Assembly: GCA_964355335.1 (NCBI GenBank)
Contig: CAYHDB010000004.1
Location: 1 to 47,960 of the forward strand
From: an uncultured Candidatus Saccharibacteria bacterium
Lineage (GTDB): Bacteria; Patescibacteriota; Minisyncoccia; Phycocordibacterales; SIBU01
Direction of reading: 5' to 3'
DNA: 47,960 nt
The position numbers and the translations under genes were made by a program. The notes under the pieces were generated by a model. The model saw nothing but the letters and a program-made list of their open reading frames with translations, made no database searches and had not been told where the DNA came from. This document shows, piece by piece, positions 1-34,778 of this stretch (positions are counted from its first letter, which is position 1; every line of letters starts with the position of its first letter).

Positions 1-993
1 ATCCATCGGTACTCCCATGCGAGATGCGGCATTGATACGAGGACCTATTGTAAAACCAATATCATCCTCCGTGAGATGACGTTGATTGACCTTAAGTTTT
101 GAGAGAAGCTTCATCAGGCCGACACGCGGAGATTTCTGCAAAACTTTCATACCGTAATACGCGAAAACACGATTCTCACCGGTAAGAGGGACCATGTCGG
201 AAAGGGTGGCGATACCGACCATATCCAACAACCATTTCTCCCACCCATTCGGGATGGGAGAAATGGTTGCTAGTTTAAAGTTTAAAGTTGAAAGTTTAAA
301 AGTAAGAGCTTGAACAAGTTTAAATACAACTCCGGCGCCACAAAGCATTTTTTCCGGATACAGACAGTCAGATTGCTTGGGATTGAGAATCGCAAAAGCG
401 GGTGGAAGTTGCTCTCCAAAATCCCCCTTAGAAAAGGGGGTTGCTTTGGGGGGTTGTGACATCCCTCCTTCCGAAGACGGCAGTGCTCCCTTTTCTAAGG
501 GAGATTTAGAGCGTAGCGGTAAGTGATGATCTGTGACAATAACATCCAACCCAAGCTCTTTCGCTCTTGCTATGGAAACAAAATCACCCGTTCCGCAATC
601 GATAGTTATCAAAAGTTTTACTCCGTCATTTGCGAATTGTTCGACCGCCTCCAGATTAAGACCGAAACCCTCGTCATGTCGATGCGGAATATAATTTATA
701 AAATTATCAAAACCAATTTTTTTAAAAAAATCGTGTAAAACCACGGCTCCCGGGATACCATCAGTGTCATAATCACTGTAAATAACTACCTTCTCGTTAT
801 TTTTTACCGCCTGAAGTACTCGCTCGACCACATTTTCCATATCCTTCATTAAATATGGGTCATGCATGTGTTTCTCATAATCCGGGGACAAAAAAGCCTC
901 AGATTTTTCCGAACCGTCAACTCCTCTTGAAATCAACAAATGATCAAGTAAAGTTGTTCCTTTTATCGGCCGTACCGCGTATTTTTTAGACAT
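1..993 (-). CDS. recJ: Single-stranded DNA exonuclease RecJ, N-terminal part (runs off the window start)
   Basis: Not in the ORF track. Manual translation from ATG at 993 is open to position 1: MSKKYAVRP...HDPYLMKDM...IYSDYDTDG...ITIDCG...VTDHH...LCGAGV...ATLSDMVPL...PRINAASRMG (all DHH/RecJ motifs). Confidence 0.93.
   Translation of the reverse strand, partial: MSKKYAVRPIKGTTLLDHLLISRGVDGSEKSEAFLSPDYEKHMHDPYLMKDMENVVERVLQAVKNNEKVVIYSDYDTDGIPGAVVLHDFFKKIGFDNFINYIPHRHDEGFGLNLEAVEQFANDGVKLLITIDCGTGDFVSIARAKELGLDVIVTDHHLPLRSKSPLEKGALPSSEGGMSQPPKATPFSKGDFGEQLPPAFAILNPKQSDCLYPEKMLCGAGVVFKLVQALTFKLSTLNFKLATISPIPNGWEKWLLDMVGIATLSDMVPLTGENRVFAYYGMKVLQKSPRVGLMKLLSKLKVNQRHLTEDDIGFTIGPRINAASRMGVPMD
419..507. 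repeat. Palindromic element inserted in frame in recJ
   Basis: 20-bp terminal inverted repeats AAATCCCCCTTAGAAAAGGG (419-438) and CCCTTTTCTAAGGGAGATTT (488-507), 19/20 complementary; adds about 30 aa just after the DHH motif. Confidence 0.75.
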
Positions 994-1066
994 CTGATTA
1001 TTCTATCACGGGGAAAATTGTTCTAACCTATTTACTATTATCTATTTTCTATTTACTATTCTCTGT

Positions 1067-1474
1067 ATGGATTGTATTTTCTGCAAAATCATAGCCGGCG
1101 AATTACCTTCCTCAAAAATCTATGAGGATGGGGACGTTTTTGCCTTTCTCGACATCAAGCCAGTAAATCCAGGGCATGTATTGGTAATTCCAAAAAAACA
1201 TTACGAAAGTATTCACGATACTCCAAACGACATTTTTGCGAAAATGAGTGTTACGGCAAAGAAAATCGCCACATCCATTCAGGACAATCTAGGGGCCAAA
1301 GGAGTAAACATCGGGATGAACAACGGCAAAACTGCCGGCCAAGTCGTCTTCCATGCTCATATTCACGTTATGCCCCGCTACGGCAAAGACTCATTCCAAC
1401 TATGGATTGGAGAGGAATCCAAAGCAGATGAACGGGTAAAAATTGCCGAGACTCTCAAAAAGGTCCTCAATTAA
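1067..1474 (+). CDS. HIT family nucleotide hydrolase
   Basis: MDCIFCKII N-terminus, GHVLVIPKKH and the histidine triad HAHIH. Confidence 0.95.
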   Translation: MDCIFCKIIAGELPSSKIYEDGDVFAFLDIKPVNPGHVLVIPKKHYESIHDTPNDIFAKMSVTAKKIATSIQDNLGAKGVNIGMNNGKTAGQVVFHAHIHVMPRYGKDSFQLWIGEESKADERVKIAETLKKVLN

Positions 1475-1503
1475 AGGCATATAAAAAGACCCGCAAAGCG
1501 AGT

Positions 1504-1698
1504 CTAATAACGACGGGGGTCATCTCTCTGCAACTGGCTGGAAGACGATTGTTTACGTGGTTCATCAATCAATAGCCGACGGCTGACCTCCGAGAATATC
1601 TCCTTGGGTGTAAATTGACCTGTCCAACCAGTCGAGGTGGGAGGGATAACGTCTCTCAAAAGATCCAAAAGCGCGCTATTCGAAATTTTCTTAATCAT
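1504..1698 (-). CDS. Small hypothetical protein (64 aa)
   Basis: ATG start, fills the gap after pgk, and is followed directly by a hairpin with a minus-strand U-tract (1483-1505). Confidence 0.4.
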   Translation of the reverse strand: MIKKISNSALLDLLRDVIPPTSTGWTGQFTPKEIFSEVSRRLLIDEPRKQSSSSQLQRDDPRRY

Positions 1699-1748
1699 AT
1701 CTAGGCTCTATATAAAATATAGCCTGAGTCGCTTACATAATCAAATAT

Positions 1749-2882
1749 TTAGAGCTTGTTTTCCAGAGCCTCGATGCCGGGCAATGTCTCATTCGCCAGG
1801 AAATCAAGCATTGCTCCACCACCGGAAGACACAAAAGAAAACCTATCCAACAGGTTCAACTTCGAAACACAAGCGAGAGTATCTCCCCCACCGACAATCG
1901 ACTCGACTCCGCTTTCTGCGATAGTGCGTGCCAACATTTCTGACCCTTCCGCAAAACCGTGTTCATAAATACCGAGCGTGCCATTCCATAAAATAAACTT
2001 TGCATTTTTAAATTGATTTTTTAACTCTTCTATAGTCATCGGACCGGCATCAAAAATCGACTCGTCTGAAGAAACCTCCGAAACCATCTTTGTCCGCCTT
2101 CCACTTGGACCGTCCACCACAACATCCACAGGAAGTACAAGTTTCGGATTCGAAACAATCTCGGAAAAATCGAATGTCCCATCCGAGCGCTTGGACTTCC
2201 CAATTTCCAACCCTTTTTCCTTAAATAAATCATTCGCAAGCGCCCCACCAATAAATACAGAATCGGCGGTTTTTAAAAACTTATTTACCAACGGTAATTT
2301 GGTATCAAACTTGGCACCGGCAAGGATAAACACAAATGGCTTTGGCGGATTAAAAGCCCTTGAAAGCCTTTCTACCTCCTCGGCAAAAAGAAAACCTGCG
2401 TAGCTAGGAAGGTATTTTGGCACTCCCACGATAGAGGCGTGGGCTCTGTGCGAGATAGAGAATGCCTCGTTCACATACACATCACCGAGTGTTGCCAGCT
2501 CCTTGACAAAGCTGTCGTCATTTTTCTTTTCTTTTTCGCCTGCAATTTTTCGGATATTTTCCAGAAGAACAAATGAACCTTCCTGTGCCCGCTCGGAGGC
2601 CTCGCGGGCGCTCTCTAAAGTTTCCGCAAAAACCACACTATAAGATTTCTTCAAATATTCAAAAACCGGCCGAAGGGTCGCCTCCTCATCAGTTCTATGG
2701 GAAATAAGTATTGTGCGAGCGCCTCCTTCTCTCAGAAAATCCAACGTTCTCCGACTTCTGACTATCCTGTAATCGTCAATTACAGCACCGTCTTGTATCG
2801 GTACATTCAAATCAATGGCAAGAAGAACTTTTTTACCACGCAAGTCACCAACCTCGTTAATAATTTTGAAACTAAACGGCAT
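1749..2882 (-). CDS. pgk: Phosphoglycerate kinase
   Basis: DLNVP, LLENIR, YVNEAFSISHRAHAS, GGALAN, DAGP, WNG, GGGDT and SSGGGAMLDFL motifs. Confidence 0.96.
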   Translation of the reverse strand: MPFSFKIINEVGDLRGKKVLLAIDLNVPIQDGAVIDDYRIVRSRRTLDFLREGGARTILISHRTDEEATLRPVFEYLKKSYSVVFAETLESAREASERAQEGSFVLLENIRKIAGEKEKKNDDSFVKELATLGDVYVNEAFSISHRAHASIVGVPKYLPSYAGFLFAEEVERLSRAFNPPKPFVFILAGAKFDTKLPLVNKFLKTADSVFIGGALANDLFKEKGLEIGKSKRSDGTFDFSEIVSNPKLVLPVDVVVDGPSGRRTKMVSEVSSDESIFDAGPMTIEELKNQFKNAKFILWNGTLGIYEHGFAEGSEMLARTIAESGVESIVGGGDTLACVSKLNLLDRFSFVSSGGGAMLDFLANETLPGIEALENKL

Positions 2883-3630
2883 TTGCGCGCTTTAGCAATT
2901 CTATAAATTCATCGGCCTCCAGACTCTTATGGCCGACCAACACTCCTTCCACTTCTCCCTCACCAAGAATACTGGATATATTCTCAGTCTCTACTGAACC
3001 ACCGTAGATTATCCGTACAGATGATGATACTTTTTGATCATAAATATCGGACAAAACTTTTTTTATAAAAATAGATGTCTCCCTAATATCAACCGGTTTC
3101 ATCGCGTCCGCGAAACTTTTACCTATAGACCACAAAGGTTCATAAGCAATTGTCAAATCCGATAAATACTTCCTTTCCACACCAAGTAGCGACTGCTTCA
3201 ACTGAGTTTTGAGAAACTCGAAGTATTCGCCGGCCACATCACGTTCCTTTTCTCCAATGCACAATATCACTTTCAGGCCCTCCCGGAGACCGGCAAGGAC
3301 CTTTTTAGAAATCACCTCGTCGCTTTCTCCAATAGTCCTTCGCTCGGAGTGTCCGATAATACAGTATGTCACCCCAAGGTCTCTAAGCATCTCGGGACTG
3401 ACTTCCCCGGTGAAACTTCCAGCGTTCCTCCAAAATACATCTTGAGCACCGAGATTACTCTTCTTACCGCCAAGTGACGATAAATATACGAATGGTGGAC
3501 AGATAACACTCTCAATATTTTTGAGCCGTCCAGCCACTTTTGACACCTTTTTACAGAGTTCCTTTGCTTCATCCAAAGTTGCGGGGTTCATCTTCCAATT
3601 GGATACGATAAGTTTCTTGTTCTTTTTCAT
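2872..3630 (-). CDS. tpiA: Triosephosphate isomerase (probable start at ATG 3630)
   Basis: NWKMN, GSFTGEVS, IIGHSERR, AYEPLWSIG and YGGSV motifs; overlaps the pgk start. Confidence 0.95.
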   Translation of the reverse strand: MKKNKKLIVSNWKMNPATLDEAKELCKKVSKVAGRLKNIESVICPPFVYLSSLGGKKSNLGAQDVFWRNAGSFTGEVSPEMLRDLGVTYCIIGHSERRTIGESDEVISKKVLAGLREGLKVILCIGEKERDVAGEYFEFLKTQLKQSLLGVERKYLSDLTIAYEPLWSIGKSFADAMKPVDIRETSIFIKKVLSDIYDQKVSSSVRIIYGGSVETENISSILGEGEVEGVLVGHKSLEADEFIELLKRANAV

Positions 3631-5022: not shown

Positions 5023-5637
5023 TTAATAGGAATCCCTCAATATTGCCGTACCGTAAAACTTCGCGGTACGAGTCATACTTCCGCTCCCCGCCACCAGTGT
5101 CATCTCGATTTTTACCGCCTGCGAAACGCCGGTCGCCATTCTTTGAAAAACCAGGTTACTTACTGTCACATTGGGAAGAGTAAGAGGTCCTTGATCAACT
5201 CCGTTTTGTTTTATTCTCAGCACACCACCAGAAACAAGGAACTGATAGGTCACAGCACTGCCGGTATCGTCCGTAGAATTGAGAGTCAAAACACCAGGAC
5301 TTGTGCCCAATGTGCTCCCTGCTGTATCGACGCTTTTGGCATTTCTTATCTCACGAACGACTCTGTCCAGAGAATCTATAGCGGAAGTTTGAATTTGTGT
5401 AGACAATCTCATAAAGCCATACGCCTTACTCATACCTATCAACATATTCACCACGGCCACAATTATCAAAATCAGAAGCCCGATATAGATGATAGTTTCG
5501 ACGAGGGAGAACCCGGCACACGAATAGCGCGCCTTCGCCCGAAACGGACTTCGGCAACACGAATGCGCCCACACGAATCCCCTATTTGTGTCATTAGTGT
5601 TATTCGTTTTCATTCGTGTATTTGTGTCGTGTTCCAT
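5023..5637 (-). CDS. Prepilin-type N-terminal cleavage protein (PilW-like)
   Basis: AG|FSLVETIIYIGLL class III signal with E5. Confidence 0.88.
   Translation of the reverse strand: MEHDTNTRMKTNNTNDTNRGFVWAHSCCRSPFRAKARYSCAGFSLVETIIYIGLLILIIVAVVNMLIGMSKAYGFMRLSTQIQTSAIDSLDRVVREIRNAKSVDTAGSTLGTSPGVLTLNSTDDTGSAVTYQFLVSGGVLRIKQNGVDQGPLTLPNVTVSNLVFQRMATGVSQAVKIEMTLVAGSGSMTRTAKFYGTAILRDSY
5516..5616. repeat. 101-bp direct repeat, copy 1 (prepilin leader)
   Basis: 99/101 identical to 6628-6728 by manual alignment. Confidence 0.92.
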
Positions 5638-9882: not shown

Positions 9883-10536
9883 CTAGTAAATAGGAGTAAA
9901 ATCTTTAAAATTTGAATTTGTCATAAAACCTCGAACGTAGGTATTTCTTTTTGTTTGTTCCAAGCAATTCAAGTCAATCGACTGCGGTATTTTACCTTTA
10001 TTTTTGATAAAAATTTCGATGATTCTCATAATAAAATCGTGCGCAATTATAAGCTTGGTATCATCAATAGAGAATATATCATCAAAAAATCTCTTAATCC
10101 GGTCAAAAGTGCTGACGTAAAATTCAGCGTCTTCCCCAGACACCATGCCCCGAAATACTGCACTGTTCACAGCCGCAATACCATCGCCTCCTTTAAACAA
10201 TTTTGCCAAATCAAAACTTATTTCGTCCAATTCTGAAAACTTTTTGACCGGGGGCCGAACACCTGTCACCTTCTCAATCTCATTCTGAAAAATAAGGGCA
10301 GTTTCCCCTGTGCGCGGAATCGTGCTCGTGTATATTACCTTAGACAAAAGTATTTCTGGAAAATTGGAAATTAATTTTTTGACCAGTATCGTCGAATATT
10401 CCATATCTATAGGAGGGTTAAGCTTCCTGTCTCCCAAACCCGAAAGCACTGAAATCGGCATCTCACTGTGATCCTTGAAAGGAAGAGATAGCTTTCCGTG
10501 CCTAACTATAAAATATCTTGATAAATTTTTATTCAT
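9883..10536 (-). CDS. Histidine phosphatase (phosphoglycerate mutase-like) family protein
   Basis: FIVRHG, TS..PRTGETA, ELDEI and LIIAH motifs. Confidence 0.8.
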   Translation of the reverse strand: MNKNLSRYFIVRHGKLSLPFKDHSEMPISVLSGLGDRKLNPPIDMEYSTILVKKLISNFPEILLSKVIYTSTIPRTGETALIFQNEIEKVTGVRPPVKKFSELDEISFDLAKLFKGGDGIAAVNSAVFRGMVSGEDAEFYVSTFDRIKRFFDDIFSIDDTKLIIAHDFIMRIIEIFIKNKGKIPQSIDLNCLEQTKRNTYVRGFMTNSNFKDFTPIY

Positions 10537-10570
10537 TGTTTTTTGTAGTATAACAAATTAATAATAAATA

Positions 10571-10599
10571 GAGGGAGCGCAATATTTTGCAACTCCCCC
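10571..10599 (-). terminator. Probable intrinsic terminator after the PEP-utiliser gene
   Basis: Imperfect GGGAG...CTCCC hairpin next to an A/T-rich tract, just after the stop codon. Confidence 0.45.
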
Positions 10600-10608
10600 G
10601 TACGATAA

Positions 10609-13089
10609 TCACTTGGAAATGATTGTTATCTTGCCCGAAGCCCCGTCAACTCTCACCCGCATTCCCGTTTTAAGCACGTGGGTAGCTCTCGGGACATTAA
10701 GTACCGCCGCAAAGCCGATTTCCCGAGCATAGATGGCTCCATGCGCAAGTAATCCTCCCACTTCGGTAACAAGCCCTCCTTTCGCCCCTACTATTGCGAG
10801 TGCCGGTGCCCAAGCTGGATCGGTCTGTTCTGTAACAAGAATTGACCCAGGCTTAAGCATTTTAATGGTCACTGTATCTGCTAAACTCCTGACAATAACC
10901 ACTTCTCCCGTAACCGAGGCGTTCGTAACACCAATACCCTTCAGAACACTCGCGGTGTTAAAAAAAGCATCAGCTGTTCCAATGTGTCGCAACTCTGCCG
11001 CAAACGAAACTGGCGGTACGTAAACGTCCCTATGGAGTCTCCGCATTTCCTCTCTTCCGTCTGCTCTCCGTCGAAGAATACCTGCCTTGGTGGTAAGATG
11101 CCCGACCTCTTCCGGTTTAAGGTAAAAGATTCGACCCTCATCCCAACCAAGCTTGCGTTCGATGACTACAGCAAGTTCCCGAAGGAGTGCATAGCCTCGG
11201 AGATATTCGAATTTTACCTCTTCTCTAAGACCCAAGTATGTCTGAGCCATGGATAGCAGGTCGCTCAAACCCTGCAAGTGCTTCCGCCCCGGTCTAAACA
11301 ACCTAGCAAGAAGCATTACACGCTCGTCTTCTTTCGAAGAAAGGTCGTGTTCGGGTGATTCCGTGATTCCCTCGGAAAGTTGGCGAAGTGTTTCCGGTTG
11401 ATTGGCAAAACGAGGCGTTGAAATTTCCAATTCATGTTGGGCAAGATGCCCGTAGCGTTCACAAACCTCTTCGAGAGTAACAGTTCCCTGTTTCAAATTA
11501 AAGAGGTCTGCCGTGAACTGCAGATTTGGATTTGTCTTCCGCGCCGATCCGCCAGTTAATACATTGAGGAATTGATCCGCCTTTTTTCCGTGATGTTTCT
11601 TTATCATCTTTCGCGCTTGCGCGTAAGAGAAGAAGCCGAGCCGAGCTGCCTTCACGAAGATCCTACAAGCACGGGTTCGAAGCAACTCACAAATCGCCAT
11701 GTACTGCGAAGTGAGTTCCGCAAGTGATCCATTGCCTAGTGAATGTTTAGCTTTTGAGATCGCAGCGGTCCATTCCGGAAGAAACTTGCTTCGATACTCA
11801 TCTTCCGTTGTGGTCGCTGCATTCAAAAGCTTTTGTTCAAAGACTTGGTACGCTTTGTGAAAGCATTTGCCCTTTCGAACTCCGAAGAGATCTGAAAGGA
11901 AGCGCCGTGTTGGGTTCTGGTTGTACAGAACCACCTCTGGATAATTGGCAAGACTCCTGTCTGCTCGAACTCTTGCAAGGTAGTGATTCACCAACTTGCA
12001 ATAATCGAGAAGCGGAATACCTGCTATCCTGTAAGTAAAAGCATCGTGAATTATGCTTGAACGTGGCTGCCCTCCTATGAGGGCGAAAAAACCACAATCC
12101 AACTCATCCCCGATCTCATACCCGAGCTCATTTCGAGCCATACGTATTGCTCCATTCCCATGGGCAAAACAATACGTGAATAATCCAAACCCCATTGTCG
12201 TAGGAAAGGACGTCAGAAGTTCGACAATGTTTTGGTCCGTGAACACGTCCTCAGCGAGTCTGCAACCAAGCGTGACAAGACGTTTTTTCTCCCTGCCAAC
12301 CTCTGCGACGGTTTCTTTGATAGAACGTTGAACTTTCGGAGAGAGCTTCTTGTCATTCAATTGGCCCAGTGTGTCAGAACGGCTTTTCCGACCCTGATTA
12401 ATAAACAACAAGCCGGTAGTGCACTCGAACGCCCATTCAATATCATTCACCCCGAGGTTCTTGTTAAGCAGCTTGGCAGTTTGGACAAGCTCCTTGATCT
12501 GCTTGGGACTCAAGTCAACACCACCTTTTCCCTCAACCCTTTTCACCAGTCCGGTTTTCTTATACACGTACCAGCGCCTCGGCTCTTCCTGCCCGGAAAC
12601 CAGTTTGTCTGCAGTACCGGTCGTGGCCTCAATGACCATGCATTCCTTGTCACCGTTTGCGGGATTATCAGTAAAGATAACCCCTGCGACAGACGCATCA
12701 ACCATCTCCTGCACAAAAAGGGCTAACCGTGGTTCTCGTGCGTGATGGACTTTCCGGTATGACTGCGCTACCGTGCTTTTTACAGCTTGGGCGCATTCAA
12801 TTACTGCGGCACCGAGGTCTTTTCGAGCGACAAACAGCTTGCTTACAAACTGCCCCGCCCACGACAACTCGCCGTCTTCGTCAACTGCGGAACTGCGAAC
12901 AGCAAAACCTACGCGGTTGTCGTCAAGAGAGCTAGTAGAATTCAACAACCCTGCTGGCAGCCTGCCAGTTCGATTGATAAAATCTACCCTTTCTACTTCT
13001 AACGAAACAAAGGGTTTAACGTTTGCCAACTTTCTGATGCGAAACAACATTACTGCTTTTCGCCCGTTATGTTTAACTGAGAGTTTCAT
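10609..13089 (-). CDS. PEP-utiliser/PPDK-type kinase: N-terminal ATP-grasp, central substrate domain, C-terminal phosphohistidine swivel (rifampin phosphotransferase / L-glutamine kinase architecture)
   Basis: AVRSSAVDEDG..SWAGQF, VQEMV...AGVIFT, DIEWA and C-terminal TDPAW...GGLLAHGAIYAREIG..AV. Confidence 0.85.
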   Translation of the reverse strand: MKLSVKHNGRKAVMLFRIRKLANVKPFVSLEVERVDFINRTGRLPAGLLNSTSSLDDNRVGFAVRSSAVDEDGELSWAGQFVSKLFVARKDLGAAVIECAQAVKSTVAQSYRKVHHAREPRLALFVQEMVDASVAGVIFTDNPANGDKECMVIEATTGTADKLVSGQEEPRRWYVYKKTGLVKRVEGKGGVDLSPKQIKELVQTAKLLNKNLGVNDIEWAFECTTGLLFINQGRKSRSDTLGQLNDKKLSPKVQRSIKETVAEVGREKKRLVTLGCRLAEDVFTDQNIVELLTSFPTTMGFGLFTYCFAHGNGAIRMARNELGYEIGDELDCGFFALIGGQPRSSIIHDAFTYRIAGIPLLDYCKLVNHYLARVRADRSLANYPEVVLYNQNPTRRFLSDLFGVRKGKCFHKAYQVFEQKLLNAATTTEDEYRSKFLPEWTAAISKAKHSLGNGSLAELTSQYMAICELLRTRACRIFVKAARLGFFSYAQARKMIKKHHGKKADQFLNVLTGGSARKTNPNLQFTADLFNLKQGTVTLEEVCERYGHLAQHELEISTPRFANQPETLRQLSEGITESPEHDLSSKEDERVMLLARLFRPGRKHLQGLSDLLSMAQTYLGLREEVKFEYLRGYALLRELAVVIERKLGWDEGRIFYLKPEEVGHLTTKAGILRRRADGREEMRRLHRDVYVPPVSFAAELRHIGTADAFFNTASVLKGIGVTNASVTGEVVIVRSLADTVTIKMLKPGSILVTEQTDPAWAPALAIVGAKGGLVTEVGGLLAHGAIYAREIGFAAVLNVPRATHVLKTGMRVRVDGASGKITIISK

Positions 13090-13166
13090 TTCAGTAATCC
13101 TTTCGTTTATTGTTCAAAACAACATTTCTGTACATACGCGTTATCGCGAAACATACACACCGATTA

Positions 13167-13796
13167 TCAACTAAGATCGACGCAGTTACCCAGGTAATCA
13201 ATAAGGTCACAAGAGTACCTAGTCCGTCGTACTTGTGCGTCAACCCTACCAAATAAACAAGCAATCACCCAAGAAGCACTCGTTCCGGTACATTTGCAAA
13301 TATACTTTATGAGTGATCTGTGTGCGTCAACATCAGAAGCTTCCCGTGCAACCGGGCAATCAGTGGGTTTCTCCCTATATCTTTGCTCCAGGTAACCAAG
13401 CGTGCAGAGCATTTTTGATTTGCATTCAGGAAAAAGCCTTTGTAGGGTTTCAGAAACGCTTTCATCCATTGCTAAGATAATCGAGGATTCTTCGATATCT
13501 GTACTACTCACTTCCTGTGCCAACCGATCTGTGGGCATAACAACTCCACACTCACTAAGAACAGGTTTAATTGTTAACCACAAAGCCGGAAAGTCTTTCA
13601 CCAGACTTTTCCCGGCACACCCAGTTAATCCCCGAGAGATACAGGTTGCCGACCTTGGCACCCTGTACAACTGCAAAGGTTCGTATGAAGCAGTGCGTTT
13701 TATTCTTAGTGTTTCATTGAGGCATGTTTCTGCAATAACTGAACGGTAAACGTTGTCTGCACAAACGATGAGAATTTGATTTTTCATAACAATCAT
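13167..13796 (-). CDS. Low-molecular-weight protein Tyr/Arg phosphatase or ArsC-like protein
   Basis: N-terminal ILIVCADNVYRSVIAE (CX5R P-loop), SRGL and IILAMD. Confidence 0.75.
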   Translation of the reverse strand: MIVMKNQILIVCADNVYRSVIAETCLNETLRIKRTASYEPLQLYRVPRSATCISRGLTGCAGKSLVKDFPALWLTIKPVLSECGVVMPTDRLAQEVSSTDIEESSIILAMDESVSETLQRLFPECKSKMLCTLGYLEQRYREKPTDCPVAREASDVDAHRSLIKYICKCTGTSASWVIACLFGRVDAQVRRTRYSCDLIDYLGNCVDLS

Positions 13797-13858
13797 TTTG
13801 TCAAAGAACTACTTTTCTGGCTGTCTATGACGGCGAATTGGTCGCCGGCATATTCCAA

Positions 13859-13900
13859 ACAAAAAAGACACCTTGGCGAAATCCAAGGTGTCTTTTTTGT
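13859..13900 (-). terminator. Attenuator terminator hairpin
   Basis: Perfect 18-bp inverted repeat ACAAAAAAGACACCTTGG-cgaaat-CCAAGGTGTCTTTTTTGT including a U-run. Confidence 0.9.
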
Positions 13901-13909
13901 CATAATTAA

Positions 13910-13996
13910 TTAACGACAAAACAGATGGATCTCGCCATGATTAGACATAGACCATCGCCAAACTGCATTTTTAATTTTTACTAATAATTGATTCAT
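13910..13996 (-). CDS. Trp-containing leader peptide (TrpL-like), 28 aa MNQLLVKIKNAVWRWSMSNHGEIHLFCR
   Basis: Manual translation; starts 4 nt after the trpR stop; TGG-CGA-TGG codons at 13960-13952; overlaps alternative hairpins upstream of the terminator. Confidence 0.8.
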   Translation of the reverse strand: MNQLLVKIKNAVWRWSMSNHGEIHLFCR

Positions 13997-14000
13997 ATTT

Positions 14001-14279
14001 TTATTTGACTTTATAATTCTTCAAAACCTTCCAAAATCCACCTTTATCGTTCAATAATTCTCTGGAACCGCGAGTAATCTTGGCAATACTGACTCCTAAA
14101 TTACCGGCTATTTCTCTTTGAGGTACCCTCTTCGAGAGCAACTTGATGATTTGCCAGCGAATACTGATATCCTCAAACTCCGTCGGAGTAAGCAGATCCT
14201 CAAGGAACTCATCCATCAGCTTTGGATTCCTGATAGATACCAACAGCTTCATTAATTCCTCTCGATATTTCTTATCCAT
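14001..14279 (-). CDS. trpR: Trp repressor (TrpR/YerC-YecD family) HTH regulator
   Basis: FLEDLLTPTE...RWQIIKLL...PQREIA.NLGVSIAKITRGSREL matches the TrpR signature. Confidence 0.88.
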   Translation of the reverse strand: MDKKYREELMKLLVSIRNPKLMDEFLEDLLTPTEFEDISIRWQIIKLLSKRVPQREIAGNLGVSIAKITRGSRELLNDKGGFWKVLKNYKVK

Positions 14280-14284
14280 ATGAT

Positions 14285-14314
14285 TTGTACTGTTGTAATG
14301 CTACACAAGTACAA
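14285..14314. promoter_or_regulatory. Tandem TrpR-type operator overlapping the trpR promoter
   Basis: TTGTACT-N16-AGTACAA with an internal GTAAT-N8-AGTAC; compare the E. coli GTACT-N8-AGTAC core with 8-bp tandem spacing. Confidence 0.7.
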
Positions 14315-14369
14315 TATCATATACGTAAAATAGCACAAGTTTGGGGTGTGGATAACTCAGATTTCACAT

Positions 14370-14400
14370 AAATAAAAGACGCTCTGTGATAGAGCGTCTT
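14370..14400 (-). terminator. Intrinsic terminator after the zinc-ribbon ORFs
   Basis: AAGACGCTCT-gtgat-AGAGCGTCTT with an adjacent minus-strand U-tract. Confidence 0.8.
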
Positions 14401-14417
14401 GGCTACAAAGAACTTTC

Positions 14418-14588
14418 TTAATACGTCACAGTGCGAACAATCTCATGTCTCATCCCGAAGTCTTCCGCCTTGTAAGGTGGCATAAGCAACCAATTACACT
14501 TAGGACAAAGGGCGGGTGATGTAACTTTCGGAAACACAATCCTGCTACACTGCCAGCACCAGTAGCATCTCCGTCTTGGATTTTTCAT
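14418..14588 (-). CDS. Small zinc-ribbon-like protein (56 aa, MKNPRRRCYWCWQC...LCPKC)
   Basis: Two CxxC pairs; GAGGGA SD upstream of ATG 14588; followed by a terminator. Confidence 0.6.
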   Translation of the reverse strand: MKNPRRRCYWCWQCSRIVFPKVTSPALCPKCNWLLMPPYKAEDFGMRHEIVRTVTY

Positions 14589-14607
14589 CACATATCCCTC
14601 TTTGTGT

Positions 14608-14811
14608 TCACGCACTCCAGGCCGAACGGCGAGGTTTGGTGCGTGTCGGTGCAGTGCCGAAACCAGCGGGACGGCTTGGCTCAGACAGAACCGCACTGAT
14701 AGGTAACTCTTCAAGAACAGTATTGCACTTTGCGCAGTGGATGTTCCGGCCGATTTGTTTTGTTGTGACATCGGCCAAACAGCGAACGCAGTATTTAGTT
14801 GGTGTATTCAT
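14608..14811 (-). CDS. Small zinc-ribbon-like protein (67 aa, YCVRC...HCAKC)
   Basis: Two CxxC pairs; first ORF after the T-box terminator. Confidence 0.6.
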   Translation of the reverse strand: MNTPTKYCVRCLADVTTKQIGRNIHCAKCNTVLEELPISAVLSEPSRPAGFGTAPTRTKPRRSAWSA

Positions 14812-14854
14812 TTTAAGGAACTATTTTTTGAGAACGATTTTTGTTTTTGAAACG

Positions 14855-15175
14855 AAAAATCCCATCCCCAATGTCCCGACATAATGTCGAGACGCTAAGG
14901 ACGAGATTTGTTTCCCGTGGTGCCACCTTGCTTGTCCGCCTAAGTTTTGTTCTCACAAAAATTTTGGCGTGCTTCTCATCAGCTCATGCTCCTTGCGGAA
15001 GATACTGATTATCTCTGTTACGGGAGAACCCGGGCCTGCACACGAGCTATACCTTTCGGTCGCTCAAGCACAGACCATCCTGTCATCTGTTTTCACAAAC
15101 GACTTATCTAGCCCCAACCCCAGCCACCTTTCGGCAACCAGGAACTAGACATGGATGTTGTAACTGTCAACCTGA
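14855..15175 (-). ncRNA. T-box riboswitch (transcriptional) with an atypical 5' domain
   Basis: T-box AAGG-UGGCACC-ACG (14929-14916) pairs with CGUCCUU (14903-14897); a competing long terminator with U-run spans 14909-14855; stem III-like hairpin upstream; F-box-like CCCGUAAC (15024-15017). Confidence 0.8.
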
Positions 15176-15179
15176 TATT

Positions 15180-15207
15180 AGGTTACCAGACCCCCAAAAT
15201 TTGTCAA
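15180..15207 (-). promoter_or_regulatory. Sigma70-type promoter for the T-box leader
   Basis: TTGACA-N16-TAACCT with an extended TG. Confidence 0.6.
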
Positions 15208-20732: not shown

Positions 20733-21974
20733 TCAAACCTCAATTTCTCGCATTACCCTACGTTTCGCCTTTTCAAATCTTGCTTCTGCGGAAGCAGGTG
20801 ATACCCAGGAAATACCCGTGATATCGCAATAGCCGTGAGCAATCACACCTGGATTGGAGACGACCGCAAAACCTGAAAAGTGAGGGACCAGCAAATCACC
20901 GAGAAGGTTTTGAATTTCTAAAAAACTGTAAGCTTCGACACGGTCAGGAAGACGCAGGTGCTCATGCCTGAAAAAACCGCTGTCGGAGTTCGCGTGCGCC
21001 CGAGAAAGTCTGCGGACCATATCATGAACATAGAGGATTGCCCCTTTTCTTGGATTAAAGTCAATCCAGTAAGGGACACCGTCATCGTCCACAACAATAT
21101 CACAACAGAAGAAACCGATCGCACCTTCAGCAATCAAGGCGGGCCAAAATCTGCTCTCCGCCTCATTCATGATACATCGGCGAGTCTCTTTCGGTAAACT
21201 TTGGGCCGGCCAAACCGCTCCAGCATATCCGAAATTACGGGAAAGTTGCTCAAAAATACCAGTGAAGCACGCTTTTCCCTCTTCGGTTATCTGCCAATGA
21301 AGAGAAACCTCTGTCGAATGGGGTATGACTTCCTCAATCATAAACTCCGCACCAAAGGCCAATCCTTGTCCAGTCAAATTACGCAGCTGCTCCTCGTTGG
21401 CAATAAGCTTCATACCACCGCAAGCAATTCCACCAGTCCCATCCTCCGCCTTCAACAACAAGGTCTTGCCCACTTGAAGCATGGGAAGGCCGTGCCGAAG
21501 CAACTCTTCCCCGTTTCGGCACGCAAACCAAGAAGGTGTCCGCAAACCATTTCGGTCAAAAAACCTCTTGAAGTTCGGCTTGCGGGAAAGCGGAATAGAA
21601 ACATCGAAATTGCAGTACGGAGCTATTCCAAGAGCCTCTGACACCTGTCGTTCACTTTCCTCAATACAGAAGAACTCGAGACGGGATGGCTCTCCGTTTA
21701 CCCGCGACCGAATTTGCCCCTGAAGAAACTGGTTTCGAAGTACAAGTTGTGACAGGGTACATGTTGGGTCAAATGGACCAGCCACCAGAAACTCCGGGAG
21801 GTCAAATCCTAGGCCTTCCCAATAACGAAGAAAGTCCCGATTGATAGGGTCAGTAGTGACCACAACATCTCCCGTGCCCGCCTGACAGATACCACCACGC
21901 TGATCATACGATTGCTCCAAAGCGACACCTTTGAAATGACGGTTGCTCTGAGTGTCTAATATTACACGTCTCAT
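20733..21974 (-). CDS. ATP-grasp peptide/amide ligase with a pre-ATP-grasp domain (PGM1-like)
   Basis: GDVVVT..P...DFLRY N-domain, LLLKAEDGTGG, MIEEVI, GFFCCDIVV and WIDFNPR. Confidence 0.75.
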   Translation of the reverse strand: MRRVILDTQSNRHFKGVALEQSYDQRGGICQAGTGDVVVTTDPINRDFLRYWEGLGFDLPEFLVAGPFDPTCTLSQLVLRNQFLQGQIRSRVNGEPSRLEFFCIEESERQVSEALGIAPYCNFDVSIPLSRKPNFKRFFDRNGLRTPSWFACRNGEELLRHGLPMLQVGKTLLLKAEDGTGGIACGGMKLIANEEQLRNLTGQGLAFGAEFMIEEVIPHSTEVSLHWQITEEGKACFTGIFEQLSRNFGYAGAVWPAQSLPKETRRCIMNEAESRFWPALIAEGAIGFFCCDIVVDDDGVPYWIDFNPRKGAILYVHDMVRRLSRAHANSDSGFFRHEHLRLPDRVEAYSFLEIQNLLGDLLVPHFSGFAVVSNPGVIAHGYCDITGISWVSPASAEARFEKAKRRVMREIEV

Positions 21975-33128: not shown

Positions 33129-34778
33129 TTAAACCAACTTTAGTTCCACGAAGAACGTGGCGCCCTTGCCCTCCCCTTCGGACTCCACCCAGATTTTACC
33201 GCCATGAGCTTTTATCATTTCTTTGGCGACATAGAGACCGAGGCCTGTGCCTAAAATATTTACTTTTGAAGCGTCCTCGGCTCGGCTGAACTTCTGGAAC
33301 AAGTGCGGGATAGTCGAAGCACGGATACCAACGCCTGTATCTTTTATCATAAGCAAAACTTTTTTATCTGCGAGGTTTGGATTAAGCGAAACGGTAATAC
33401 TTCCCTTCTGAGTATATTTCGACGAGTTGTCCAAAAGGTTCGAGACCACCTGCTTGAGCTTACCATAATCCCCGCTGATATTTACCGATTCAGAACAAGT
33501 CGTAACCGAAAACTGTAACCCTTTATTCTCAATCGTCGGTCTTATCTCATTGGCCACTTCATTGATTAGTTTACACAAATCAAACACCGTAAGGTCATAC
33601 TTCATCCTCCCCTGTTCGATACGCGACACGTTCAAGAAATCATCCACAATTACCGCAAGTGAGCGACTCGACTGATAGATAGTATCAATCGGACCCTTGA
33701 ACGGTCTAGGCAAATCTCCATAATCTCCTTCAAGGACCATAGACGCATACCCTTTTATCGAAGTCAGCGGTCCTCGTATCTGATGCGTGGCGAGCGACAC
33801 GAACTCGCTCTTGAGTTGGTCCAGCTCCTTCAATCGCGCATTCGCCCCCTCAAGTTCCTTTTCCTGCTTTTCAATCTTCTCTCGCTGTGCAACCTCTTTT
33901 TTCACACTTCGTATGAGGTTTATGCCGATCACTCCTGTAACGGCAAGAGTGATAGCCGTCAGAACTCTATTTGTATTATTTCTAATAAAGAAGAATTGCG
34001 AACCAATCAGAATTATAAGAGAAAAAACAAGCGCCTGCGCTCCAACGAGCTTTATATTGAAAGTTTTAAACCGAACAATCAGAAATGCCAGGGACCCGAT
34101 AAAGATCACCATGCCAAACAAACCGTAAATCTCATAGGTATAGTCAAGGGTCTTCTCCGATATAAAACCGGCAACAAAAAACGCAAAAATGAAACTCGCA
34201 AGTCCAAGTGAAAGAAGAAGTATTTGTTTTCGAAACTGTTTGTCCGCCTTTACATACTTGACGATAGCAAAAATTATAATTGAAAAGGAAGTAACAGCTT
34301 TAACAAAAAATACATATTGAAGATAGAGGCTATTCTCGAGAGCCACGCATTCCCGAGCATCAAAACCCTTAAGGTATAGCGTCGTCGGAGCGGAAATAAT
34401 AAGTGGCGCAAGAATCAGCGAAAATAGCACCTTCTTTCTCAAGGAAACATCTCTCTTTTCACAAAAAACATCGATAAAATAAAGACTAAGAAGAAAAAGG
34501 GTTACGCTAAAAATCTCAATAGGTGCCCAGGATGACATTATTACACTCGCCTTGTCATAATTGATCCAAATCAGCAGATCAAGTGTTGCCCAAATCGCGA
34601 AAACAAAAGAAATTGCAAGCAAAATCTTACTCAAAATACTGCGACTTTTCAGGTAAACGTAAAATCCGACAATCAGACCTATAGACGCTGTCGGTATATG
34701 CGAATAATACAAAAGGCTTGAATACTGTTCCACTATTTGCCTGCAGTACTCCAAATTTGTGGCAAGATTATAATCCAT
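33129..34778 (-). CDS. Membrane-bound sensor histidine kinase (multi-TM N-terminus, HisKA + HATPase)
   Basis: SEFVSLATHQIRGPLT H-box, NLLDNSSKYT, DTGVGI, GTGLGL and GGKIWVESEG.GKG. Confidence 0.95.
   Translation of the reverse strand: MDYNLATNLEYCRQIVEQYSSLLYYSHIPTASIGLIVGFYVYLKSRSILSKILLAISFVFAIWATLDLLIWINYDKASVIMSSWAPIEIFSVTLFLLSLYFIDVFCEKRDVSLRKKVLFSLILAPLIISAPTTLYLKGFDARECVALENSLYLQYVFFVKAVTSFSIIIFAIVKYVKADKQFRKQILLLSLGLASFIFAFFVAGFISEKTLDYTYEIYGLFGMVIFIGSLAFLIVRFKTFNIKLVGAQALVFSLIILIGSQFFFIRNNTNRVLTAITLAVTGVIGINLIRSVKKEVAQREKIEKQEKELEGANARLKELDQLKSEFVSLATHQIRGPLTSIKGYASMVLEGDYGDLPRPFKGPIDTIYQSSRSLAVIVDDFLNVSRIEQGRMKYDLTVFDLCKLINEVANEIRPTIENKGLQFSVTTCSESVNISGDYGKLKQVVSNLLDNSSKYTQKGSITVSLNPNLADKKVLLMIKDTGVGIRASTIPHLFQKFSRAEDASKVNILGTGLGLYVAKEMIKAHGGKIWVESEGEGKGATFFVELKLV

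Follow-up and report, generated by a model that had tools for sequence, protein, structure and literature searches.

We analysed a 47,960-nucleotide stretch of DNA, hereafter the window, which is contig C4 of a Patescibacteria genome (G000; 968 kb in 56 contigs, 92.6% complete) whose closest relatives carrying a name bear the depositor label Candidatus Taylorbacteria (L019 and P0003). On the minus strand, positions 9883-15207 hold a promoter, a T-box leader, two zinc-ribbon microprotein genes, a terminator, an operator and trpR, a short leader peptide with an attenuator, and genes for a low-molecular-weight protein tyrosine phosphatase (LMW-PTP)-like protein, a dikinase and a histidine-phosphatase-superfamily protein (Table 1). 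An original prediction, made from the letters of the window alone, had listed these parts in this order as a single run of stacked tryptophan (Trp) sensors wired to phospho-transfer genes. We found every part, in that order and on one strand, but the run is not continuous: the terminator at 14400-14376 is predicted to split it into two transcription units. The proposed wiring holds for the unit made of trpR and the leader, whereas the T-box would here control the zinc-ribbon genes as a unit of its own. As had been noted, no trp, transport or synthetase target gene is present at the locus. The three proposed Trp-directed sensors withstood comparison: since the T-box, the operator with trpR, and the leader with its attenuator are each kept in relatives with compensatory changes, the parts are more than a product of chance. 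The anatomy of the sequence, its conservation, the covariation and the repeated gene context are observed directly. From them, we consider it likely that the locus consists of two adjacent Trp-responsive units in the genome of a Trp auxotroph, and that the dikinase module belongs to a Trp-limitation regulon.

The original prediction also took the cell to be a probable auxotroph, and the genome bears this out. A tblastn search with the G003 protein as query did not find TrpE in G000, and no family matches to trpB, trpD or aroC were found there, while the positive controls matched in all 14 reference genomes; a trpS gene was found on a different contig. At the completeness given above, the absence of the trp genes is probable, not proven, and G000 is thus probably Trp-auxotrophic. 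The contiguity of the locus was compared with assembled reads: a 2315-nt contig of run X1, a possible source sample, covers 12727-15041 with zero differences, and a contig from a second sample, X2, covers 14026-14500.

Table 1. Features of the locus and of the adjoining genes in window coordinates, from high to low positions
Feature	Positions	Strand	Remarks
CYTH/CyaB-like gene	15836-15213	-	TIGR00318, E 8e-6, under cut-off; outside the finding
Candidate sigma-70 promoter of the T-box unit	15180..15207	-	TTGACA (15207-15202), 16 nt, TAACCT; read from sequence
Predicted Trp T-box leader, transcription-attenuation type	15152-14849	-	specifier UGG at 15116-15114
T-box motif GGUGGCACC	14927-14919	-	within T-box leader
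T-box antiterminator	~14929-14897	-	7-nt bulge
T-box terminator and U-run	~14907-14849	-	competes with antiterminator
Zinc-ribbon microprotein 1, 67 aa	14811-14608	-	CxxC...CxxC; basic tail ending AWSA; ORF call
Zinc-ribbon microprotein 2, 57 aa	14588-14418	-	start at internal ATG; motif PPYKAEDFG
Intrinsic terminator of the T-box unit	14400-14376	-	10-bp stem, then T-rich tail
DnaA-box-like motif TTATCCACA	14347..14355	-	left edge of trpR cassette; upstream of -35 in most cassettes
Candidate trpR promoter	14287..14338	-	TTGTGC ... TG-n-TATTGT; overlaps operator
Predicted TrpR operator	14312-14287	-	GTACT-tgt-GTAGC-attacaac-AGTAC, between -10 and trpR ATG
trpR, 92 aa	14279-14001	-	PF01371 77.7 bits (cut-off 27)
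Leader ORF, 28 codons, MNQLLVKIKNAVWRWSMSNHGEIHLFCR	13996-13910	-	W-R-W; UGG CGA UGG at 13960-13952
Attenuator	13936-13861	-	antiterminator 13936-13927 with 13884-13875
Attenuator terminator	13892-13867	-	U-run 13866-13861
Second conserved hairpin	13829..13849	-	after attenuator terminator, before cargo start
LMW-PTP-like phosphatase, 209 aa	13796-13167	-	PF01451 30.6 bits (cut-off 23.2); CX5RS motif CADNVYRS near N-terminus
Dikinase, 826 aa, rifampin phosphotransferase-like build	13089-10609	-	PPDK_N residues 56-184; PEP-utilizers 746-819
Histidine-phosphatase-superfamily protein, 217 aa	10536-9883	-	RHG (FIVRHGK) and later His (IIAHD)
pilB-like T2SSE ATPase	9810-8059	-	downstream of cargo

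The T-box leader and its zinc-ribbon genes

The promoter stretch of the T-box unit and its counterpart in L051 are 92.8% identical, and G006 has TTGACA-N16-TATACT at the equivalent place. At gathering thresholds, Rfam gave no match anywhere in the window; at relaxed thresholds, the T-box family RF00230 matched positions 15095-14894 with 28.8 bits (local E 4e-4), and the related T-box leaders score 27-35 bits. The antiterminator contains a 7-nt bulge, AAGG[UGGCACC]ACGGG...CUCGUCCUU, and its 3' arm is reused as the 5' arm of the terminator, a long helix of AUCUCGUCCUU...GGGGAUGGGAU followed by a U-run, so that the two helices are mutually exclusive. The terminator energies were between -28 and -48 kcal/mol in all seven leaders folded.

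A DNA search of 61 related genomes recovered homologous leaders in five of the six other genomes of the genus. We compared 14 leaders, consisting of that of the window, those of the five genus genomes, L051 and G680, and six from class genomes found with a pattern search. In the minimum-free-energy fold of the 5' part, 13 of the 14 show a P1 helix enclosing a plain distal hairpin and a 5-nt internal loop, GUUGG, on the 3' side, the fourteenth having the loop UUGGGC instead. The five P1 pairs adjoining the specifier loop occur as two to four pair types each across the 14 leaders, with variants such as UCUAG/CUAGA, UUAAG/CUUAA, UCUGG/CCAGA and CUGGAG/CUUCAG. The bulge reads UGGC or UGGU across the leaders, and the tRNA-Trp of G000 ends in G-CCA, with G73 found in all six genus genomes checked (G000, G001, G002, G003, G005 and G006). 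Among these, strict covariation between the bulge base and the tRNA-Trp discriminator was not found, as all six tRNAs have G73 and the bulge has C or U; the two are compatible as predicted C-G or U.G pairs, which is not covariation.

Trp genes follow this T-box in 3 of the 14 cases: trpB and trpA in G002 (the trpB scoring 601 bits to TIGR00263), TrpE in G536 and a TrpD-family gene in G532. Because these genes follow the leader, we infer UGG, over UUG or GUU, to be the best reading of the GUUGG loop. The assignment to Trp would thus rest on the bulge base, G73 and the gene context, and we predict that the RNA is a working Trp T-box riboswitch with tRNA-dependent antitermination. An earlier reading, based on the cmscan alignment and on analogy with two other T-boxes of G000, had placed an ultrashort Stem I with a GAC or UGG specifier at ACAGAUGACAGGAUGGUCUGU; it was dropped because in the relatives that stretch forms a hairpin that varies, and the conserved specifier loop is found 5' of it.

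A pattern census found the T-box in 7 of 401 class genomes, with 0 control matches, which is a lower bound as the F-box region of the genus type is not matched and G000 itself was therefore missed; a second pattern with a longer gap matched 0 of the 401 genomes and did not recover G000 either. The two other T-boxes of G000 have a GAC (Asp) specifier at G000:C33:3633-3823 (-) (L001), before a class I/II aminotransferase, and an ACC (Thr) specifier at G000:C37:6504-6634 (-) (L003), before thrS. In both, the specifier is in the terminal loop and the score is under the Rfam threshold. A GGUGGGACC motif near 21653 (-) of G000:C9, upstream of an 880-aa aminoacyl-tRNA-synthetase-like open reading frame (ORF), may mark an atypical T-box.

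The sensors of the locus are of known kinds, the T-box being of the transcriptional type with a minimal Stem I. Shortened Stem I elements are known from the actinobacterial ileS-type T-boxes, which act translationally. The present leader shares with them the lack of the distal platform for the tRNA elbow, and Stem II and IIA/B (F-box-like CCGUAA) following Stem I, but it differs in having a classic terminator and antiterminator and in placing the specifier below a short hairpin, in an internal loop of 5 nt rather than a terminal loop. The TBDB preprint names Firmicutes, Actinobacteria, Chloroflexi and Deinococcus-Thermus as T-box groups, its figures or supplements possibly listing more phyla, and our full-text search of one literature library returned no paper joining the T-box with Patescibacteria, candidate phyla radiation (CPR) or Parcubacteria.

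Relatives of the first zinc-ribbon ORF are found behind the same T-box in G001, G002, G006 (in a fused form), L051 and, from another family, G681; they keep the four cysteines, the basic tail and a Trp at most four residues from the C terminus. A relative of the second ORF in L051 is 43% identical to it, and the second ORF shares the motif PPY(K/Q)xEDFG with the G006 fusion. The hairpin that ends the unit has an equivalent in L051. Pfam gave marginal zinc-ribbon matches only, and a four-member profile searched against 1.84 billion representatives matched four proteins, two of which are the profile's own members. The microproteins would thus be conserved orphan cargo of this T-box. The two zinc-ribbon ORFs of L051 overlap at ~5160-5180, where the GTG that starts the second falls within the last Trp and stop codons (UGGUGA) of the first. 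Such an arrangement points to translational coupling at a Trp codon, but the ORFs are 19 nt apart in G000 and 37 nt apart in G002. A similar gene setting is known from Bacillus subtilis, where a Trp-specific T-box induces the small zinc-binding protein anti-TRAP (rtpA) when tRNA-Trp is uncharged (PMC10327191). Both have a Trp T-box, here a predicted one, before a small zinc protein gene, and the likeness is one of gene setting. No TRAP gene was seen near the locus, and no genome-wide search for TRAP was made.

The trpR-leader cassette and its cargo

The TrpR of the window aligns to the helix-turn-helix of Escherichia coli TrpR and retains the Arg of ...R-x-x-I... and the IAxITRGS stretch, which presumably have the roles in Trp co-repression that they have in the E. 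coli protein. This TrpR is present in two of the seven genomes of the genus, G000 and G003, with 95% identity; the others hold only a paralogue of ~30% identity, which G000 has too, on contig C1. Our TrpR scans gave 32 loci in public genomes and 55 loci in metagenomes. The close relatives (44-95% identity) come from small-genome metagenome-assembled genomes, and the next ones from Chlamydiae, Coxiellaceae and other Gammaproteobacteria, so TrpR with a leader is not limited to the Gammaproteobacteria, the group to which the original prediction had assigned it. Related cassettes have GTACT-N8-AGTAC, or a tandem form of it, between the -10 element and the trpR start; the half-site consensus of E. 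coli TrpR is of GNACT type. A perfect TTATCCACA is found ~35-45 nt upstream of the trpR promoter, its position being kept in L019, L051, L020, L053, L055, L021, L057, L059 and L067. It coincides with the start of the homology between G000 and G003, and could be a regulator site or a recombination boundary. The trpR cassette is 82-90% identical among G000, G003 and L051, and the adjoining pilB 70-76%; that the cassette is more alike than pilB fits either exchange or constraint.

The original prediction had proposed a comparison of the neighbourhoods of trpR homologs. We counted 37 related loci with a TrpR identity of at least 44%, the window included, and found the cassette with a tandem-Trp leader, a short ORF with WW, WWW or WRW, in 21 of them, starting between -28 and +20 nt from the trpR stop; in four of the 16 loci without one, the available sequence ends within 335 nt of trpR. 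Trp genes do occur at this position in some relatives. The leader of the window is kept in G003 and L051 with frame-keeping changes.

Two alternative pairings follow from the leader RNA. In G000, pairing is possible between GAUGGUCU, which takes in the second Trp codon, and AGAUCCAUC, as well as between GGCGAGAUCC (13936-13927) and GGAUUUCGCC (13884-13875), the latter forming the top and loop of the terminator. The corresponding attenuator partners in L021 are GGCAAGAUCC and GGAUCUUGCC, and the more distant L020 and L062, read by eye, have the same topology from other sequences. When the segment after the Trp codons was scored against the 5' arm and loop of the terminator, it beat at least 95% of 300 shuffles in 13 of the 17 leaders scored; in four of the 17 (L058, L060, L062 and L078) the wrong hairpin was scored, and L069 and L081 were without a terminator call. 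In an alignment of eight leaders, standard pairs fill 95% of the antiterminator cells and 98.7% of the terminator cells, in comparison with 11-59% in slid controls, and the two helices each have two pairs that are changed on both sides. As the eight leaders are relatives, these figures are supportive, not proof. Taken together, the trpR-leader unit appears to be a conserved, portable Trp-sensing cassette. The second hairpin, between the attenuator and the cargo, varies in sequence and keeps its position in L021, L022, L057, L020, L060 and L069. A motif before the cargo start codons, AGTTCYTT, has 44 of its 124 sites near gene starts genome-wide, compared with 52 of 201 for the reversed control, giving no clear genome-wide tie of the motif to gene starts in G000.

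The E. coli trp operon is controlled by Trp-activated TrpR and by a leader with adjacent Trp codons, 1:2, 2:3 and 3:4 hairpins and a terminator (PMC7755916). The cassette resembles it in its palindromic operator, tandem Trp codons and alternative hairpins. Unlike in E. coli, the transcript has trpR as its first gene and carries the leader between this gene and the cargo, the terminator's top and loop serve as segment 3, no trp gene is among the cargo, and the host is a CPR bacterium. The trpRBA operon of Chlamydia trachomatis, as described in the same source, has trpR first, then an intergenic region with a proposed leader, and then the cargo; that leader is atypical, with 59 aa and no adjacent Trp codons (PMC7755916). 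Chlamydial TrpR is 41-56% identical to that of the window over the best segment, but the present leaders are short, have WW, WWW or WRW and an attenuator that covaries, and the cargo here is the dikinase module.

The dikinase consists of, in order, an ATP-grasp part, a long middle region and a C-terminal swivel-His domain, without a phosphoenolpyruvate (PEP)/pyruvate TIM barrel, and the swivel His sits in GGLLAHGAIYARE. Its best NCBIfam matches, the PRK06241-type PEP-synthase-like family, RedH, PigC and rifamycin phosphotransferase, are all far under their cut-offs. The match to the rifampin phosphotransferase model NF041857 has an E value of 2e-44, but as it scores 151.9 bits against an equivalog cut-off of 999, we file the protein only as sharing the rifampin phosphotransferase architecture. 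The best solved relatives, 5fbs and 5hv1, which we take to be rifampin phosphotransferase, align to residues 522-824 and to the N-terminal part. With these and the PEP-synthase-like dikinases, the protein shares the domain order and the lack of a TIM barrel; it differs from both in falling far under every equivalog cut-off, in having one or two phosphatases alongside and in having Trp sensors upstream. We found 855 homologues at E <= 1e-10, among which the named ones with 40-48% identity are from Taylor-, Wildermuth-, Kaiser- and Sungbacteria. Judging from the architecture, the dikinase most likely phosphorylates the hydroxyl of a small molecule through a phospho-His. As for the accompanying enzymes, an LMWPc homologue follows the trpR-leader cassette in L052, and a dikinase homologue, P0051, has a C-terminal LMWPc domain, a fusion that ties the LMW-PTP-like gene to the dikinase. 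Neither the LMWPc-like nor the histidine-phosphatase-like protein matched any solved structure in a sequence search.

What the sensors drive in relatives

In all genus genomes examined, the locus lies directly upstream of pilB and its content is different each time. The T-box is followed by a dikinase (80% identity) and a histidine phosphatase (75%) in G005, by two zinc-ribbon ORFs, trpB and trpA in G002, by one zinc-ribbon ORF in G001 and by the fused ORF in G006, while G003 has the trpR-leader cassette with trpE and trpG. L051 carries a T-box, two zinc-ribbon ORFs, a terminator, the trpR-leader cassette, trpE and trpG, that is, the sensor stack of G000 with trp cargo. The homology between G000 and G003 stops a few bases past the cargo start codon. 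By this comparison, the arrangement of G000 resembles a recombination product of the L051 type and the G005 type to which the LMWPc gene has been added. Outside the genus, G680, which belongs to a different family, has the same T-box before a dikinase (45% identity) and a histidine phosphatase (37%).

The trpR-leader cassette, too, has varied cargo. It drives a full trp operon in L023, trpE and trpG in G003/L019 and L051, and trpE in L070. Elsewhere it precedes a TrpB-like gene, a ParB_N-like gene and EPSP synthase (L058), radical SAM and DUF169 proteins (L021, L022 and L057), a 279-aa protein with an AstE_AspA-like protein (L020 and L053), a ParB_N-like protein (L061 and L065), or LMWPc and radical SAM proteins (L052). 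In L059, whose TrpR is 59% identical to that of the window, the cargo is a dikinase homologue with 40% identity over 514 residues. For four dikinase homologues, that of the window included, the upstream DNA could be read, and all four have a Trp sensor directly upstream, TrpR and leader in G000 and L059 and the T-box in G005 and G680; a histidine phosphatase follows the dikinase in all three complete cases. The dikinase is otherwise rare: at E <= 1e-40, it was found in two of the 301 genomes searched in the order and in two of the 401 searched in the class.

The dikinase set is not alone in occurring under both sensors. A GCS2-like gene accompanied by AstE_AspA or GGACT stands behind the T-box in G533 and G578 and behind the trpR-leader cassette in L020 and L053. 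It is chiefly this second cargo set, found under both sensor types, that speaks for a selected and not an accidental link of the modules to Trp sensing. The combination of a GCS2-like ligase with an AstE_AspA-like deacylase or a GGACT-like cyclotransferase (L142, which is G533; L146, which is G578; L020 and L053) suggests that Trp is set free from a conjugate.

In G005, the DNA immediately before the T-box and dikinase operon holds a second tryptophanyl-tRNA synthetase (TrpRS) gene, at 2096-3459 (-) of G005:C16 (L139), preceded by a 119-aa Cys-rich zinc-ribbon ORF and followed by a chorismate-mutase (CM_2) and methyltransferase fusion at 790-1977 (-) of L139; no T-box was found before this TrpRS. 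On the other side of the slot, every genome examined has a separate TATAAT promoter for pilB, and in G001, G003 and L051 the cargo is followed by a terminator. Because of these, we rejected read-through from the sensors into pilB and pilC as unlikely. The CYTH/CyaB-like gene of G000 lies immediately upstream of the T-box promoter; in G003 and L051, its position is taken by a histidine kinase, whose orthologue in G000 is at ~33132-33881.

Proposed mechanism and rival explanations

The response to Trp, the activities of the enzymes and the purpose of the module are predictions from sequence. In the first unit, uncharged tRNA-Trp (anticodon CCA, G73) would base-pair at two sites, UGG and the bulge UGGC, and stabilise the antiterminator, and RNA polymerase would then read into the two zinc-ribbon microprotein genes; with charged tRNA-Trp, the long terminator would form. 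In the second unit, Trp-bound TrpR is expected to repress its own promoter at the GTACT...AGTAC operator. A ribosome stalled at the W-R-W codons would free segment 2 (GGCGAGAUCC) to form a duplex with the terminator's top and loop, and RNA polymerase would proceed into the genes for the LMW-PTP-like protein, the dikinase and the histidine phosphatase. The dikinase would convert ATP to AMP plus Pi via a phospho-His intermediate and phosphorylate a small-molecule hydroxyl, and the phosphatases may remove or reset the phosphate.

The original prediction had left open whether Trp status acts as a cue that switches on a phosphorylation module or whether the locus is the regulatory shell of a lost trp operon refilled with new genes. 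The shell was rightly suspected in so far as G003 and L051 have trpE and trpG at the corresponding position behind this cassette, and G002 has trpB and trpA behind this T-box. That nothing else is involved, the unrelated genes having recombined into the shell of a trpEG or trpBA operon and the Trp control being accidental and without adaptive meaning, we nevertheless regard as unlikely. The slot upstream of pilB, different in every genus genome examined, and the homology of G000 and G003 that ends a few bases after the cargo start codon are what such a history would leave behind, but the wiring to the phospho module recurs: a dikinase and a histidine phosphatase stand behind the Trp T-box in G005 and also in G680, of a different family and with 45% protein identity, and a dikinase stands behind a different trpR cassette (59% TrpR identity) in L059. 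As it recurs, it is not a one-off refill, and the alternative of a cue is supported; other non-trp cargo under both sensors, the GCS2-like genes with AstE_AspA or GGACT, also argues against an accident. It is quite improbable, in turn, that the dikinase, like rifampin phosphotransferase, inactivates a xenobiotic by phosphorylating it, perhaps an inhibitor of Trp-tRNA charging, with the sensors reporting the drop in charged tRNA-Trp. Its architecture, the best solved relatives 5fbs and 5hv1 and the E value of 2e-44 to the NCBIfam rifampin phosphotransferase model would suit a resistance module, as would the fact that T-box and leader both sense charging instead of free Trp, and the second TrpRS gene beside the G005 locus. 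However, a charging inhibitor would not lift the repression by TrpR, which responds to free Trp, the score of 151.9 is far from the equivalog cut-off of 999, phosphatases that would reverse the modification are encoded alongside, and the other cargo sets under the same sensors are unlike resistance genes.

The presence of two phosphatase families that often act on proteins, next to a kinase, and the position of the locus against pilB and pilC in all genus genomes examined would agree with protein phospho-signalling, where the swivel-His protein phosphorylates a protein, the LMW-PTP-like and SixA-like enzymes reset it, and Trp scarcity becomes a signal, for example in host interaction via the type IV pilus genes. 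Given the separate pilB promoter in all genomes and the cargo terminators in G001, G003 and L051, a lack of any evident receiver or target protein, and a closest characterised architecture that acts on small molecules, we hold this to be very improbable. Hardly any weight goes to the possibility that the T-box-like RNA is not specific to Trp or is not a working riboswitch. The score under the Rfam threshold, the GUU and UUG also contained in GUUGG and the GAC (Asp) specifier that the first reading of the cmscan alignment suggested in a different hairpin speak for it. Yet the leader is conserved over 14 genomes or contigs with trp genes downstream in 3 of the 14, the GAC hairpin is not conserved in the relatives, and UGGC would not pair with A73, the usual discriminator base of Val and Leu tRNAs.

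Several points weigh against the reading that we prefer, of two Trp-responsive units with the dikinase module under Trp-limitation control. On the RNA side, the T-box is far under the RF00230 gathering score (28.8 vs 93 bits), and the distal platform of Stem I, with its AG bulge and distal loop, is missing, a plain hairpin of 6-11 bp and variable sequence being found in its place. Its GUUGG loop can also present UUG or GUU, and the bulge base does not strictly covary, the pairing of UGGU with G73 being a wobble. The relatives compared are kin, so that the covariation counts overstate their independence, and the pair counts for the attenuator come from eight leaders only. On the protein side, TrpR scores 63.9 bits to the equivalog TIGR01321, just under its cut-off of 67.25, the histidine phosphatase scores 17.7 bits to PF00300, under the cut-off of 21.7, and one kinase with two phosphatases resembles a futile cycle. 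Only the contig of the possible source sample bridges the stretch where the leader joins the LMWPc gene, and the hypervariable slot beside pilB favours accidental juxtaposition.

A wider reading, which we offer tentatively, is that of a modular Trp-starvation regulon in Patescibacteria of this class, in which two interchangeable sensor cassettes, the reduced Trp T-box and the mobile trpR-leader, stand before a shared accessory pool of dikinase and phosphatases, GCS2-like ligase with deacylase or GGACT, radical SAM with DUF169, and zinc-ribbon microproteins. Auxotrophs may thereby read Trp scarcity as a measure of host supply and switch on salvage or host-directed functions of a novel sort, and the zinc-ribbon microproteins may act in the manner of anti-TRAP. 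In the textbook cases, the T-box and TrpR with its leader control amino-acid genes of Firmicutes and Proteobacteria. New here are the presence and stacking of these sensors in CPR, the trpR-leader unit as a seemingly portable cassette, and the repeated wiring of both to non-trp modules, whose genes are not known to be connected with Trp. The T-box would extend the structural range of these riboswitches to a transcriptional type with a minimal Stem I, and the sensors are small, portable parts that could be studied in E. coli or B. subtilis without growth of the organism itself. For the biology of CPR bacteria, they would provide a regulatory handle on genes, the dikinase and phosphatases, the GCS2-like sets and the zinc-ribbon microproteins, that may be wanted when Trp runs out.

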